Virus record (IMG/VR): IMGVR_UViG_2802429234_000002
Source of the DNA: a virus
Lineage: Duplodnaviria; Heunggongvirae; Uroviricota; Caudoviricetes
DNA length: 30,476 bases
Reading direction: 5' to 3' (one strand)
The notes beneath the pieces are model-generated. The model saw only the letters and a program-made list of their open reading frames with translations. It was not told where the DNA came from and did not search any database. Below are positions 2,688-9,794 of the stretch, piece by piece (position 1 is the first letter of the stretch; the number at the start of each line of letters is the position of its first letter). Both the position numbers and the translations under genes were made by a program.

Positions 2688-3152
2688 ATGAGGCAAGATT
2701 TAAATAAAACATCGGTGACTATCATCAGAGGAAACCTTGAAGATGCATCACCATCTAACAGCCTGACTATTACGTATAGTGAGTTTGCTAATAGTACGAA
2801 AGAATATAAATCAGCCGATGAATTGAGAAAACAAAATATCATTTTGGATAATGATGAACTTGTTTTTATTAGTTCAGATGGTGATGAAGAAATTCTACGG
2901 CTGAATTTGAAATCTTTATTTCATGACTCTTTTTTGCGCATTAAATATGAATGCGTTGGTATGACCGTTCAAGAGCGCATGGAACTCGCTAAGGCTCTTC
3001 GTGAAACGATAATTTCTAAATCAGGCGATATAAATAGTATTAAATGGTCAATAGGGCTTGATGACTGGAAAAGTATTTTTGACATGATGACGCATCCGTA
3101 TAAACAGCATACGGATGCAAGATGCTATTTTAAAAATGATTTATATCAATAA
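2688..3152 (+). CDS. Hypothetical protein, 154 aa, no recognisable family; low-GC moron
   Basis: ATG 9 bp after the cox stop with strong SD (AAGGAGG); G+C about 37% by manual count of 2688-2759; not part of the P2 gene set I recall. Confidence 0.65.
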   Translation: MRQDLNKTSVTIIRGNLEDASPSNSLTITYSEFANSTKEYKSADELRKQNIILDNDELVFISSDGDEEILRLNLKSLFHDSFLRIKYECVGMTVQERMELAKALRETIISKSGDINSIKWSIGLDDWKSIFDMMTHPYKQHTDARCYFKNDLYQ

Positions 3153-3324
3153 AGCCTTTGAGTTGGACTGGCTTTTTAGGGTGAATGATCTCTCTTAATT
3201 GAATAGTTAATTCATCCACTTTTTTAGCGTCCTCAAAATCTCCCATTGGAGTTGGTAGGGTATTTGCTAATGCAACCGCTTTTTCGAGAGTGGTTATAAG
3301 TTCGTCAATATTTTGATTATTCAT
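3130..3324 (-). CDS. Hypothetical protein, 64 aa, no recognisable family; convergent with and overlapping the 154-aa ORF
   Basis: ATG at 3322-3324 preceded by SD GAGGT with about 5-nt spacer (minus strand); low GC; 3' end overlaps the 3' end of the 154-aa ORF by 23 bp. Confidence 0.5.
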   Translation of the reverse strand: MNNQNIDELITTLEKAVALANTLPTPMGDFEDAKKVDELTIQLREIIHPKKPVQLKGFIDINHF

Positions 3325-5411: not shown

Positions 5412-7677
5412 AGCCTCCGGGCGTTTTGTCCCTCCGTCAGCATTTACCGCAGGCACCGGTAAGGCGTTTACCGGTGCTTATGCATGGAACGCGCCACGCG
5501 AGGCTGTCGGGCGCGAAAGACCCCTTACACGTGACGAGATACGTCAGGTGCAAGGTGTTTTATCCACGATTAACCGCCTGCCTTACTTTTTGCGTTCGCT
5601 GTTTACTTCACGCTATGACTACATCCGGCGCAATAAAAGCCCGGTGCACGGGTTTTATTTCCTCACATCCACTTTTCAGCGTCGTTTATGGCCGCGCATT
5701 GAGCGTGTGAATCAGCGCCATGAAATGAACACCGACGCGTCGTTGCTGTTTCTGGCAGAGCGTGACCACTATGCGCGCCTGCCGGGAATGAATGACAAGG
5801 AGCTGAAAAAGTTTGCCGCCCGTATCTCATCGCAGCTTTTCATGATGTATGAGGAACTCAGCGATGCCTGGGTGGATGCGCATGGCGAAAAAGTATCGCT
5901 GTTTACGGATGAGGCGCAGGCGCATCTGTATGGTCATGTTGCTGGCGCTGCACGTGCTTTCAATATTTCCCCGCTTTACTGGAAAAAATACCGTAAAGGA
6001 CAGATGACCACGAGGCAGGCATATTCTGCCATTGCCCGTCTGTTTAACGATGAGTGGTGGACTCATCAGCTTAAAGGCCAGCGTATGCGCTGGCATGAGG
6101 CGTTATTGATAGCTGTCGGGGAGGTCAATAAAGACCGTTCTCCTTATGCCAGTAAACATGCCATTCGTGATGTGCGTGCGCGCCGTCAGGCAAATCTGGA
6201 GTTTCTTAAATCGTGTGACCTTGAAAACAGGGAAACCGGCGAACGCATCGACCTTATCAGTAAGGTGATGGGCAGTATTTCTAATCCTGAAATTCGCCGG
6301 ATGGAGCTGATGAACACCATTGCCGGTATTGAGCGTTACGCCGCAGCAGAGGGTGATGTGGGGATGTTTATCACGCTGACCACGCCGTCAAAGTATCACC
6401 CGACACGTCAGGTCGGAAAAGGTGAAAGTAAAACCGTCCAGCTAAATCACGGCTGGAACGATGAGGCATTTAATCCAAAGGACGCGCAGCGTTATCTCTG
6501 CCGTATCTGGAGCCTGATGCGCACGGCATTCAAGGATAATGATTTACAGGTCTACGGTTTGCGAGTCGTCGAGCCACACCACGACGGAACGCCGCACTGG
6601 CATATGATGCTTTTTTGTAATCCACGCCAGCGTAACCAGATTATTGAAATCATGCGTCGCTATGCGCTCAAAGAGGATGGCGACGAAAGAGGAGCCGTGC
6701 GAAACCGTTTTCAGGCAAAACACCTTAACCGGGGCGGTGCTGCGGGATATATCGCGAAATACATCTCAAAAAACATCGACGGATATGCACTGGATGGTCA
6801 GCTCGATAACGATACCGGCAGGCCGCTGAAAGACACTGCAGCGGCTGTTACCGCATGGGCGTCAACGTGGCGTATCCCGCAATTTAAAACGGTTGGTCTG
6901 CCGACAATGGGGGCTTACCGTGAACTACGCAAATTGCCTCGTGGCGTCAGCATTGCTGATGAGTTTGACGAACGCGTCGAGGCTGCACGCGCCGCCGCAG
7001 ACAGTGGTGATTTTGCGTTGTATATCAGCGCGCAGGGTGGGGCAAATGTCCCGCGCGATTGTCAGACTGTCAGGGTTGCCCGTAGCCCGTCGGATGACGT
7101 TAACGAGTATGAGGAAGAAGTCGAGAGAGTGGTCGGCATTTACGCGCCGCATCTCGGCGCGCGTCATATTCATATCACCAGAACCACGGACTGGCGCATT
7201 GTGCCGAAAGTTCCTGTCGTTGAGCCTTTGACTTTAAAAAGCGGCATCGCCGCGCCTCGGAGTCCTGTCAATAACTGTGGAAAGCTCACCGGTGGTGATA
7301 CTTCGTTACCGGCTCCCACACCTTCTGAGCACGCCGCAGCAGTGCTTAATCTGGTAGATGACGGTGTTATCGAATGGAGTGACCCGGAGGTCGTGATGGC
7401 GCTCAGGGGCGCATTAAAACACGGACTGAGAACACCAAATCGTCAGCAAAGAAACGGAATCCCGTTAAAACCGCATGAAATTGCACCATCTGCCAGACTG
7501 ACCAGGTCTGAACGATTGCAAATTACCCGTATCCGCGTTGACCTCGCTCAGAACGGTATCAGGCCGCAACGATGGGAGCTTGAGGCGCTGGCGCGTGGCG
7601 CGACCGTAAATTATGACGGGAAAAAATTCACGTATCCGGTTGCTGATGAGTGGCCGGGGTTCTCGTTACCCATTTGA
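5401..7677 (+). CDS. A: Replication initiation protein A (rolling-circle HUH endonuclease)
   Basis: 758 aa from ATG 5401 (N-terminus MAVKASGRF as recalled for P2 A); HUH-type motif PHHDGTPHWHMMLF and tyrosine motif YIAKYISK; track ORF begins at TTG 5359. Confidence 0.9.
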   Translation: MAVKASGRFVPPSAFTAGTGKAFTGAYAWNAPREAVGRERPLTRDEIRQVQGVLSTINRLPYFLRSLFTSRYDYIRRNKSPVHGFYFLTSTFQRRLWPRIERVNQRHEMNTDASLLFLAERDHYARLPGMNDKELKKFAARISSQLFMMYEELSDAWVDAHGEKVSLFTDEAQAHLYGHVAGAARAFNISPLYWKKYRKGQMTTRQAYSAIARLFNDEWWTHQLKGQRMRWHEALLIAVGEVNKDRSPYASKHAIRDVRARRQANLEFLKSCDLENRETGERIDLISKVMGSISNPEIRRMELMNTIAGIERYAAAEGDVGMFITLTTPSKYHPTRQVGKGESKTVQLNHGWNDEAFNPKDAQRYLCRIWSLMRTAFKDNDLQVYGLRVVEPHHDGTPHWHMMLFCNPRQRNQIIEIMRRYALKEDGDERGAVRNRFQAKHLNRGGAAGYIAKYISKNIDGYALDGQLDNDTGRPLKDTAAAVTAWASTWRIPQFKTVGLPTMGAYRELRKLPRGVSIADEFDERVEAARAAADSGDFALYISAQGGANVPRDCQTVRVARSPSDDVNEYEEEVERVVGIYAPHLGARHIHITRTTDWRIVPKVPVVEPLTLKSGIAAPRSPVNNCGKLTGGDTSLPAPTPSEHAAAVLNLVDDGVIEWSDPEVVMALRGALKHGLRTPNRQQRNGIPLKPHEIAPSARLTRSERLQITRIRVDLAQNGIRPQRWELEALARGATVNYDGKKFTYPVADEWPGFSLPI

Positions 7678-7892
7678 GTAAAAACACAACGTGATTTGAT
7701 ATGGCATTGAATGGCTTATGCGGAGCAGTTATGGGGCAGCCGAAGGTCAATAGCATGCTGAATTAGAAGGCTAAATGCTATTGAGTGACTAGCATGTCGG
7801 TAAGGACAGCCGTTTGATCCGGGTCATAAAAGGCCATCCATTTAGTCTAATAAAATCATTGCGGGTAACCTTATGTCGACGCATAATTCGTC

Positions 7893-7907
7893 TTGAGCGA
7901 AGTCTTG
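7893..7907. repeat. Direct repeat copy 1 (TTGAGCGAAGTCTTG)
   Basis: Exact 15-bp match to 8157-8171. Confidence 0.85.
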
Positions 7908-7937
7908 TCAGTCTTTCATCGTATTGATGATGGGCGC

Positions 7938-7967
7938 AAAAAAACCACCCTGGCAGGTGGTTTTTTT
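7938..7967. terminator. Bidirectional rho-independent terminator (A7 - GC hairpin - T7)
   Basis: AAAAAAACCACCCTGGCAGGTGGTTTTTTT; serves the end of A (plus) and the small minus-strand peptide gene. Confidence 0.8.
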
Positions 7968-7979
7968 GTTTGAAGCATA

Positions 7980-8093
7980 TTAAAGCATAATGCTGACATT
8001 GATATTACTGACGTTTACTGACAAACCACTCGGACTACCGTTTGGATAGCCAAAGAGGGCCAGAACGAGAATGCAGTAATAGCATTTCTTCAT
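7980..8093 (-). CDS. Small hydrophobic peptide, 37 aa (MKKCYYCILVLALFGYPNGSPSGLSVNVSNINVSIML)
   Basis: ATG at 8091-8093 preceded by AGGAGG with 4-nt spacer (minus strand); hydrophobic N-terminal segment; terminator immediately downstream; lies where P2 carries tin/old. Confidence 0.4.
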   Translation of the reverse strand: MKKCYYCILVLALFGYPNGSPSGLSVNVSNINVSIML

Positions 8094-8156
8094 ATTGCCT
8101 CCTGTAAGTAGAGGGCAACTTCCACCGGTATATGCGCTTCTTAGGTGGAATGACTT

Positions 8157-8171
8157 TTGAGCGAAGTCTTG
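8157..8171. repeat. Direct repeat copy 2 (TTGAGCGAAGTCTTG)
   Basis: Exact 15-bp match to 7893-7907; the two copies bracket the terminator and the small peptide gene. Confidence 0.85.
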
Positions 8172-8238
8172 CCCTGAAATAATGCTCTGTTTAAACGCAA
8201 AGTGATTTGGCATATCACCGAACAGAGAGCCGGAAAAA

Positions 8239-8286
8239 CACAACATATAGTATGTCGTTGTTTCTAGACATACATTCTATGTTGTG
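8239..8286. repeat. Imperfect inverted repeat (18/20-bp arms, 10-nt spacer)
   Basis: CACAACATATAGTATGTC ... GACATACATTCTATGTTGTG; outer 9 bp and inner 6 bp pair perfectly. Confidence 0.7.
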
Positions 8287-8571
8287 TAACAAGGGCTTTG
8301 CATTAAACATGTTTGAGATTTTATTGATGTAGCTCAAAGTAAAAAACAGAGACTACGGATGATAAGGTCTTGAAAGCAATGTAAATTTTTTAAGGTTGCC
8401 AATTGCTTAAAAATGTACAGTTGCGGTATGGCGTACTTAAAAAGCTATGCATGCAACAAGTGAATGTTTTTGCATGCGTTGGGGATGTCCGTTCAGGCTG
8501 CGTGCGGTCAGGACTGGTGCGGATCCATAGTATCTATGCAACTGCATTAAAACCGCCCCGTGAAGCGGGCG

Positions 8572-8590
8572 GGCGAGGCGGGGAAAGCAC
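8572..8590. other. cos: cos site (19-nt cohesive-end sequence of the P2 family)
   Basis: GGCGAGGCGGGGAAAGCAC matches the P2 cohesive end as I recall it; located between A and Q as in P2; a GC-rich hairpin lies just 5' of it. Confidence 0.8.
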
Positions 8591-8732
8591 TGCGCGCTGG
8601 CGGTGGTGCTGATTTTATTTTTTCAGCGTCTGAGCGCGTCGTGATGGCGTTTAGATTGTGCGCCGGGGCGTTGGTGTGTCTGCGGGATGTTTTGTGCGGT
8701 GGTGAGCGTGTGAGGGCGTGATGACAGGGTGT

Positions 8733-8754
8733 AAAAAAGCCGCCCGCAGGCGGC
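8733..8754 (-). terminator. Rho-independent terminator after Q
   Basis: On the minus strand GCCGCC-TGCG-GGCGGC followed by TTTTTT, 5 bp past the Q stop. Confidence 0.75.
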
Positions 8755-8759
8755 GATGT

Positions 8760-9794
8760 TCAGCCGTTGTCAGTGTCCAGTGAGTAGTTTTTAAAGCGGA
8801 TGACCTCCTGACCGAGCCAGCCGTTTATTTCCCGAATCCTGTCCTGTAACGGGATAAGCTCATTGCGGACAAAGACCTTTGCCACTTTCTCAATATCTCC
8901 CAGCGACCCGACGTTCTCCGGCTTGCCTCCCATCAACTGAAAGGGGATGCGGTGCGCGTCCAGCAGGTCAGCGGCGCTGGCTTTTTTGATATTAAAAAAA
9001 TCGTCCTTCGTTGCCACTTCACTGAGCGGGATAATTTTAATGCCGTCGGCTTTCCCCTGTGGGGCATAGAGAAACAGATTTTTAAAGTTGTTGCGGCCTT
9101 TCGACTTCACCATGTTTTCGCGGAGCATTTCGATATCGTTGCGATCCTGCACGGCATCGGTGACGTACATGATGTATCCGGCATGTGCGCCGTTTTCGTA
9201 ATACTTGCGGCGGAACAGCGTAGCCGACTCATTCAGCCAGGCAGAGTTAAGGGCGCTGAGATATTCCGGCAGGCCGTACAGCTCCTGATTAATATCCGGC
9301 TCCAGCAGGTGAAACACGGAGCCGGGCGCGAAGGCTGTCGGCTCGTTGAAGGACGGCACCCACCAGTACACATCCTCTTCCACACCACGGCGGGTATATT
9401 TTGCCGGTGAGGTTTCCAGTCTGATGACCTTACCGGTGGTGCTGTAACGCTTTTCCAGAAACGCATTACCGAACACCAGAAAATCCAGCACAAAGCGGCT
9501 GAAATCCTGCTGGGACAGCCACGGATGCGGGATAAATGTCGAGGCCAGAATATTACGTTTGACGTAAATCGGGGAGCTGTGATGCACGGCAGCACGCAGG
9601 CTTTTTGCCAGACCGGTAAAGCTGACCGGTGGCTCATACCATCTGCCGTTACTGGTGCACTCGACGTAATCCAGAATGTCACGGCGGTCGAGTACCGGCA
9701 CCGGCTCACCAAAGGTGAATGCCTCCATTTTCGGGGCGCTGGCGGTCATTTTTTTTGCCGCAGGTTGCGGTGTTTTCCCTTTTTTCTTGCTCAT
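8760..9794 (-). CDS. Q: Portal protein
   Basis: 344 aa, same length as P2 Q; precedes the terminase large subunit; 1-nt stop/start overlap with P. Confidence 0.9.
   Translation of the reverse strand: MSKKKGKTPQPAAKKMTASAPKMEAFTFGEPVPVLDRRDILDYVECTSNGRWYEPPVSFTGLAKSLRAAVHHSSPIYVKRNILASTFIPHPWLSQQDFSRFVLDFLVFGNAFLEKRYSTTGKVIRLETSPAKYTRRGVEEDVYWWVPSFNEPTAFAPGSVFHLLEPDINQELYGLPEYLSALNSAWLNESATLFRRKYYENGAHAGYIMYVTDAVQDRNDIEMLRENMVKSKGRNNFKNLFLYAPQGKADGIKIIPLSEVATKDDFFNIKKASAADLLDAHRIPFQLMGGKPENVGSLGDIEKVAKVFVRNELIPLQDRIREINGWLGQEVIRFKNYSLDTDNG

Follow-up and report, generated by a model that had tools for sequence, protein, structure and literature searches.

Why does an exact 15-bp direct repeat enclose a terminator and a very small gene in a P2-like prophage? 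In the window (the whole stretch of DNA that was analysed, 30,476 nucleotides), TTGAGCGAAGTCTTG is found on the plus strand at 7893-7907 and at 8157-8171, and there is no third copy of the motif, even when 2 mismatches are allowed. As reported in a preliminary description of this DNA, the repeat is real and its two copies bracket a bidirectional terminator and a 37-codon minus-strand ORF with its GGAGG, all of which can be read from the sequence. The replication endonuclease gene A ends at 7677 and the portal gene Q lies at 8760-9794 on the minus strand, with the terminase gene beyond it, which places the repeat within the cos-proximal gpA–gpQ interval of the prophage. In P2-like phages this interval is a hotspot of accessory and anti-phage cargo (Rousset et al., PMC9122126).

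Conservation of the repeat and extent of the module

To compare the locus between lineages we used an alignment of 12 representatives from at least 6 lineages, with 67-100% identity to the window. Across at least 7 lineages the rest of the module is 68-89% identical, and the two copies stand out from it as islands of invariance. In copy 1 the two bases at 7893-7894 vary between lineages, and the core that follows them, GAGCGAAGTCTTG (7895-7907), shows no change in any of the lineages examined, including those with as little as 68% overall identity. Copy 2 differs from this core by at most one base in every lineage examined, and only two changes are seen in it, a G to T at 8159 in the L010 group and a T to C at 8167 in L050 and L059-61, the latter shared by these loci possibly because of a single event. 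The invariant runs of at least 8 nt are GCATAATT, GAGCGAAGTCTTG, the terminator with its A and T tracts, 8185-8192, 8214-8227 and two short stretches of the toxin-like ORF, GAGCGAAGTCTTG being the longest of them outside the terminator. Since overall identity falls to 68-78%, this conservation is not an artefact of very recent spread. Conservation therefore bears out the earlier view that the repeat is not random and is functionally tied to the peptide gene and terminator that it encloses. The same cannot be said of the internal GTCTTG...GTCTTG repeat described in copy 1 (7890-7895 and 7902-7907), which is present in the window but not conserved, relatives having ATCTCG or GCCGTG at the GTCTTG position, and which is therefore probably a product of chance.

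The homology extends well past the two copies. Local alignments to Klebsiella plasmid loci (L005-L008) and metagenome loci (L050, L059), at 72-78% identity, start at 7814-7838 and end at 8345-8388. They delimit a mobile module of ~575 bp (7814-8388) that comprises the putative sRNA gene, the shared terminator, the toxin-like gene, its 5'UTR and its promoter region, and that reaches ~80 bp to the left of copy 1 and ~215 bp to the right of copy 2. The repeats are hence internal to this mobile unit and are not its boundary. The breakpoints of the cargo in P2-like phages lie elsewhere too. Most P2-like phages and prophages match the window only up to ~7665, at the end of gene A, and again from near 8536, where the cos-side homology common to most of them starts; a second P2-like group shares the stretch from 7600 to ~8393-8444, and another group matches from 8448 onwards. 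Breakpoints are thus seen at ~7665-7680, 8393-8444, 8448 and 8536 and never at the motif, which answers in the negative the question, raised in the preliminary description, of whether cargo boundaries coincide with it. We take GGCGAGGCGGGGAAAGCAC, at 8573-8591, to be the cohesive-end (cos) sequence of P2, which is 19 nt long, in which case ~185 bp separate the end of the module from cos.

The segment 7860-8290 is found in 152 of 5,426 complete E. coli genomes, in each case over at least 80% of its length; E. coli KO11FL/W, 50EVAW and 600468 have it in identical form. No deletion variant between the copies was found among the 5,426 genomes, and no single copy with the interval missing was found among relatives. 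The module is also present in 27 IMG/VR contigs, in ~400 Klebsiella plasmids (mostly conjugative, of IncF/IncHI1B types), in Citrobacter and in metagenome contigs, the Klebsiella plasmid, Citrobacter and metagenome versions being ~68-78% identical to that of the window and having unrelated flanks. It is an autonomous and mobile unit. GTDB species representatives, when scanned with the 5'UTR motif, yielded 0 matches, and the module is absent from the whole of pKPN3, a plasmid of K. pneumoniae MGH 78578, the strain with dRNA-seq data (TSS/RIP-seq source PMC10907235). The text of a RIL-seq study of hypervirulent K. pneumoniae (strain SGH10, PMC11347178) contains nothing on the module, and a full-text literature search with the motif and peptide strings returned no relevant match. 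In the plasmid collection, twelve records carry a match of at least 99% identity to the window-type module; they are probably from Salmonella, judging by the organism tally, and may be P2-like phage-plasmids or mis-assigned prophage contigs.

The putative antitoxin RNA and the toxin-like gene

On the plus strand, a putative sigma-70 promoter (7859-7887) lies just upstream of copy 1, with a -35 box TTGCGG at 7859-7864, a 17-nt spacer and a -10 box CATAAT at 7882-7887. Among the 12 representatives GCATAATT (7881-7888) is invariant and TTGCG(G/A) nearly so, and the spacer has diverged in sequence at a constant length of 17, as it has in the Citrobacter locus L075. Conserved boxes around a diverged spacer of fixed length look like the signature of a promoter, and a simple scanner did not report it because the -35 box of the window matches in only 3 of 6 positions. 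The invariant core of copy 1 begins 7-8 nt past the -10 box, that is, at the predicted +1. A putative antitoxin sRNA of ~75 nt (7895-7970, plus strand) would then consist of a 5' seed formed by this core, a central stem-loop (7911-7935) and a terminator hairpin with a U tail. Indeed, the sequence from 7895 to the T tract folds into a 5' single-stranded region, the central stem-loop and the terminator, with an energy of -29.3 kcal/mol, which corresponds to z = -4.7 relative to shuffled sequences.

Between lineages the sequence of the central stem changes and its pairing is kept, with 85.6% of cells paired against 41-61% in slid controls. Compensatory changes on both sides are seen in six of its nine pairs, and no shuffle out of 500 attained its covariation score. 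With 14 G·U cells and 6 C·A cells in the stem, the plus strand is more likely to be the one that folds. The RNA matches no Rfam family, its weak Rfam matches being driven by the terminator. A plus-strand ORF of 37 aa that runs across copy 1 (7814-7927) was rejected as not coding, given a stop codon in L050 and frameshifts in other relatives. Upstream of the -35 box, in 7814-7858, there is a conserved block TTGAT..GGTCATA(A/G)AA..TAATAAA, and at the far right edge of the module, at 8377-8388, there is another, ATGTAAATTT; these blocks might serve as UP elements or in regulation, or might contain the true promoter region of the toxin gene.

The bidirectional intrinsic terminator (7938-7968) has the form A7–CCACC-CTGGCA-GGTGG–T7, with the A7 tract at 7938-7944, the stem CCACC at 7945-7949 and GGTGG at 7956-7960, and the T7 tract at 7961-7967; the A and T tracts are invariant in all lineages. 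Since this terminator is common to both convergent transcripts, the 3' hairpins of the sRNA and of the mRNA would be complementary to one another. The terminator loop of the sRNA, CUGGCA (7950-7955), starts with CUGG and fits YUNR, the U-turn motif that recognition loops of antisense RNAs typically have. The loop of the mRNA terminator is exactly complementary to that of the sRNA, and the Citrobacter loop is CUGGCC.

On the minus strand, the 37-codon toxin-like ORF (MKKCYYCILVLALFGYPNGSPSGLSVNVSNINVSIML followed by a stop codon, 7980-8093) has the same length, with no indels, in 12 lineages. Its variable sites fall 13/11/24 by codon position and its dN/dS is 0.13-0.26, so that it is under purifying selection. 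The peptide starts with MKK, has an N-terminal hydrophobic segment CILVLxLFGYP and a polar tail SGxSVNVSxINV, carries no charged C-terminal tail and matches no NCBIfam, Pfam or PHROGs family. Two database proteins, P0002 (68 aa) and P0003 (71 aa), are versions of it that are altered at the C-terminus. In the window only, the frame is open upstream to an ATG at 8246, giving an ORF of 88 aa (7980-8246, minus strand) through copy 2; this extended ORF was rejected, as a stop codon interrupts it in relatives.

The Shine-Dalgarno sequence GGAGG (8098-8102, minus strand), located 4 nt before the AUG, is invariant in all lineages and is predicted to be mostly paired in the 5'UTR of every one of them, with a probability of being unpaired of 0.01-0.26. 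We considered a switch in which binding of the sRNA frees UUGCCC to sequester the Shine-Dalgarno sequence and rejected it, because partition-function folding with the target blocked changed the accessibility of this sequence in only 2 of 9 lineages. Further upstream, the 5'UTR contains a conserved stem-loop (8185-8227, minus strand), CUCUGUU...AACAGAG with an inner GUGAU...AUCAC, which is built on the invariant runs 8185-8192 and 8214-8227 and appears in the predicted consensus fold, but without covariation. The toxin promoter is the least certain part of the module and its placement is a guess from conservation. The candidate (8274-8302, minus strand) has a -35 box TGCAAA at 8302-8297, a 17-nt spacer and a -10 box TAGAAT at 8279-8274; TA(G/A)AAT and ATGCAAA are conserved in all lineages, and the -35 box is weak (3/6). 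Transcription from it would start at ~8267 and produce a 5'UTR of ~174 nt. Around the candidate -10 box there is a 10-bp inverted repeat, ACACAACATA (8238-8247) and TATGTTGTGT (8278-8287), found in the window and the B lineages and missing from the Klebsiella plasmid versions, which perhaps acts as an operator specific to these lineages or forms a hairpin at the 5' end of the RNA.

With this arrangement the two copies are read from opposite strands, and the 5' end of the sRNA, GAGCGAAGUCUUG..., is consequently complementary to the mRNA at -64 to -78. The evidence thus points to a direct repeat that yields RNA-RNA complementarity when transcribed from opposite strands, a reading that was absent from the preliminary description. 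Copy 2 (8157-8171, minus strand; CAAGACUUCGCUCAA) is the predicted target, 64-78 nt upstream of the AUG of the toxin mRNA. In the window the duplex comprises 15 nt and can be extended to 8173 through a U·G and a C-G pair; in the B lineage it comprises 13 nt, then C-G and U·G, and in Klebsiella and Citrobacter it comprises 17 nt, TGAGCGAAGTCTTGCCA. The edges of the repeat therefore vary, and the length of the duplex is held at 14-17 bp across lineages. The G to T change at 8159, in the L010 sublineage, is at an edge position and leaves the duplex one pair shorter, and the T to C change at 8167, the sole internal one, places a U of the sRNA opposite a G of the mRNA, which is a wobble pair. Seed-restricted duplex energies range from -25.6 to -34.2 kcal/mol in all lineages, compared to -16 to -20 (sd ~2.5) for shuffled seeds. 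Only these energies were used; full-length RNAduplex values were set aside as uninformative, because they ignore intramolecular structure. Within the module family the 13-nt core is never altered on both sides, and the intermolecular duplex accordingly displays no compensatory covariation. Support for the pairing hence comes from conservation, wobble compatibility and analogy with homologous systems, and not from compensatory change.

Relation to known type I systems

The homologous system is timP/TimR (ryfA/STnc2070), a type I toxin–antitoxin system of Enterobacteriaceae (PMC7667032, PMC11228461, PMC13000454). Compensatory mutagenesis and in vitro translation have proven that the pairing of its sRNA with the 5'UTR represses translation, and TimR acts by destabilising an activating pseudoknot (PMC7667032, PMC11228461). 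The connection to the module runs through a locus of Rahnella victoriana (L076) that was found in a peptide-based scan of species-representative genomes. This locus matches the Rfam model RF00126 (ryfA, timP mRNA) over the full model length with 57.8 bits and E = 1.4e-13, a score below the gathering score and to be compared with 314.9 bits for the K-12 locus, and its ORF aligns with the timP start codon. The peptide family of the window is 40-43% identical to the Rahnella ryfA/timP-locus peptide, collinearly and over the full length (BLASTP 6e-10 and 1e-7; hhalign probability 97%, E = 5e-11). BLASTP of the window peptide against E. coli TimP gave no alignment, so that the two are linked only through the Rahnella peptide, which is in turn linked to E. 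coli TimP by the RNA model only (protein hhalign probability 18%). Neither the window-family peptides nor the Rahnella peptide match NCBIfam toxic_TimP (NF040796) at E <= 10, a model that gives 86.8 bits for E. coli TimP, and Rfam ryfA (RF00126) has no match at E <= 10 in window positions 7400-8800.

The geometry of both systems is equivalent. Measured from the AUG, the direct repeat between the sRNA 5' end and the 5'UTR is located at -64..-78 in the window, -65..-83 in K-12 and -64..-88 in Rahnella, using TimR 5' ends that are annotated or inferred. As in the window, timPR loci encode a toxin of ~37-41 residues with an MKK or MKI start and an N-terminal hydrophobic signal-like segment, have a long structured 5'UTR with a sequestered Shine-Dalgarno sequence, and carry an sRNA whose 5' end is complementary to the 5'UTR ~64-88 nt before the AUG and is seen in DNA as a direct repeat read from opposite strands. 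The module thus appears to share with timPR its toxin ancestry (via Rahnella), the position of the target and the logic of the opposite-strand repeat. The two differ in the place of the sRNA gene, which is downstream and convergent with a shared terminator in the window but upstream and divergent in timPR, and in the pairing sequence, which in timPR is unrelated to that of the window and differs in each lineage. Furthermore, the module resides on prophages and plasmids, whereas timPR is at the chromosomal sseA–sseB locus. From this it seems that the antitoxin gene changed its place relative to the toxin gene, the position of the 5'UTR target remaining constant. In E. coli K-12 there is a second TimR-like copy between timR and timP (L009 1183-1277), in which the terminator and body are 84-90% identical to timR and the seed, AATGCAAGCGCGTCTCAGC, has diverged, being 74% identical to the timR seed region.

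The convergent layout recalls another type I system, par (Fst / RNA I–RNA II) of the Enterococcus faecalis plasmid pAD1, with its convergent promoters, bidirectional terminator and direct repeats that provide complementarity (PMC7472228). Like the window module, par is composed of convergent units that share a bidirectional intrinsic terminator with complementary 3' hairpins (conserved in all lineages of the module), has direct repeats transcribed in opposite directions that give 5' complementarity, sequesters its Shine-Dalgarno sequence in an intramolecular stem, and is carried by a plasmid or other mobile element. The differences are that the module has one repeat where par has two (DRa, DRb), that its target is 64-78 nt before the AUG and does not overlap the initiation region, that its peptide gives no match to the Fst/Ldr superfamily (Pfam, E <= 10) and that its host is Gram-negative. 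To our knowledge, the Fst systems of Gram-positive bacteria are the only ones for which such a par(pAD1)-like convergent design has been described.

A target far upstream of the start codon is also found in zorO/OrzO of EHEC, where the complementarity of the sRNA lies 72-92 nt upstream of the RBS (PMC2887945). Like the module, zorO/OrzO has an adjacent, non-overlapping sRNA gene and a short perfect complementarity far upstream in the toxin 5'UTR, and so does tisB/IstR-1, as cited in PMC11228461. In both of these systems, unlike in the window, the sRNA gene is divergent and upstream, the toxin is unrelated and the terminator is not shared.

Explanations of the repeat and their consequences

Taken together, we find it quite likely, with a probability of about 0.78, that the two copies of the repeat act as seed and target in a mobile, TimP-related type I toxin–antitoxin module that is unannotated and has a par-like convergent architecture. 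We base this reading on the observed anatomy and conservation of the module, the coding constraint on its ORF, the covariation of the sRNA stem, the homology of its peptide with that of the Rahnella TimP locus and the geometry equivalent to that of timPR. As in type I systems generally, the gene is a real coding sequence for a hydrophobic peptide of fewer than 60 aa (37 aa) and, at the sequence level, it is adjacent to a putative sRNA gene with a conserved complementarity of 13-17 nt. In the proposed mechanism, an sRNA of ~75 nt would be transcribed rightwards from the promoter at 7859-7887, copy 1 providing its first nucleotides, and the gene for the 37-residue hydrophobic peptide would be transcribed leftwards from ~8267, with copy 2 in a 5'UTR of ~174 nt. 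Both transcripts would end at the same bidirectional terminator. In the cell, the sRNA would pair through copy 1 with copy 2 of the toxin mRNA, the hairpins of the shared terminator being complementary as well, and the bound sRNA would keep the mRNA of the presumably toxic peptide untranslated, acting far from a Shine-Dalgarno sequence that is already sequestered. Repression could proceed as in timP/TimR, where an activating 5'UTR fold is destabilised, or by occlusion of a standby site, as in zorO/OrzO and tisB/IstR-1.

Other explanations of the repeat were weighed against this one. The copies could be DNA operator sites through which a host or phage regulator controls both convergent promoters together, and it is true that they are conserved as DNA in the same orientation and that copy 1 overlaps the predicted +1 of its promoter. 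However, the ~575 bp of the module encode no regulator, and the module moves among replicons and genera that are unrelated to one another (P2-like prophages, IncF/IncHI1B plasmids of Klebsiella and Citrobacter DNA), which disfavours the repeated regulator binding sites proposed in the preliminary description. Copy 2, moreover, is ~100 nt downstream of the candidate toxin promoter and within the transcript, the sole internal substitution preserves RNA pairing, and the homologous timPR loci use such a repeat, with a lineage-specific sequence, for RNA pairing (PMC7667032). We thus regard operator sites as unlikely, although they are the strongest of the competing explanations.

Less probable still is a repeat that arose as a target-site duplication or recombination site bounding a terminator-peptide cassette, or one that promotes deletion or exchange of cargo, both of which had been put forward earlier. 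A short exact direct repeat flanking a small unit would be in keeping with the gene turnover of the gpA–gpQ hotspot (PMC9122126), but homology between contexts continues past both copies, the cargo breakpoints are elsewhere, and relatives with one copy and no interval are lacking; none of the 152 E. coli genomes with the segment contains a copy-to-copy deletion product. Furthermore, the repeat has been kept through ~30% divergence, contrary to what is expected of a passive duplication scar. The least probable explanation, to which we give very little weight, is that the match arose by chance or remains from an old local duplication and has no function today. The window does contain two other exact 15-mer direct repeats at long range, that is, three at any distance, and of 400 windows simulated with a first-order Markov model, 49 contain a 13-mer repeat within 300 nt. 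Yet this pair is the only one with copies within 300 nt, a 15-mer repeat that close arises in just 3 of the 400 simulations, and the copies are almost unchanged while their flanks have diverged to 68% identity. Taken alone, the match that was earlier described as very unlikely by chance is only modestly improbable, and chance makes a weak argument for the non-randomness of the repeat, the strong one being its conservation.

If the copies are indeed the seed and target of a type I module, its role could be addiction to the prophage or plasmid, or (abortive-infection) defence in the P2 gpA–gpQ hotspot. More tentatively, and with odds that we place well below even, the locus may represent an undescribed mobile branch of TimP toxins that has been rewired to a par(pAD1)-like architecture and that possibly serves as an RNA-controlled abortive-infection or addiction module in the hotspot, triggered once the labile sRNA is no longer transcribed. 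Such a branch would extend the TimP toxin family to mobile elements. It would also provide a concrete proposed function for a segment that RefSeq leaves unannotated in all but few records among those listed, and that is carried by complete genomes of E. coli (152) and by Klebsiella plasmids of clinical relevance (~400).

Apart from the module, no cargo can be recognised in the gpA–gpQ anti-phage hotspot of this prophage, and if the mobile-branch reading is true, protein-based surveys would have scored such hotspots as empty. This suggests that RNA-regulated small-peptide modules are overlooked when phage defence hotspots are surveyed by their genes. In three relatives that are 87-89% identical, Peduovirus OU784750 (L002), Salmonella phage MET_P1_103_31 (L003) and E. 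coli S7 (L004), a gene for an ImmA/IrrE-family metallopeptidase and a further ORF come after the module (~2714-3200 in each). The window has neither the metallopeptidase gene nor the extra ORF, so that the module is the constant part beside gene A and the further cargo is variable.
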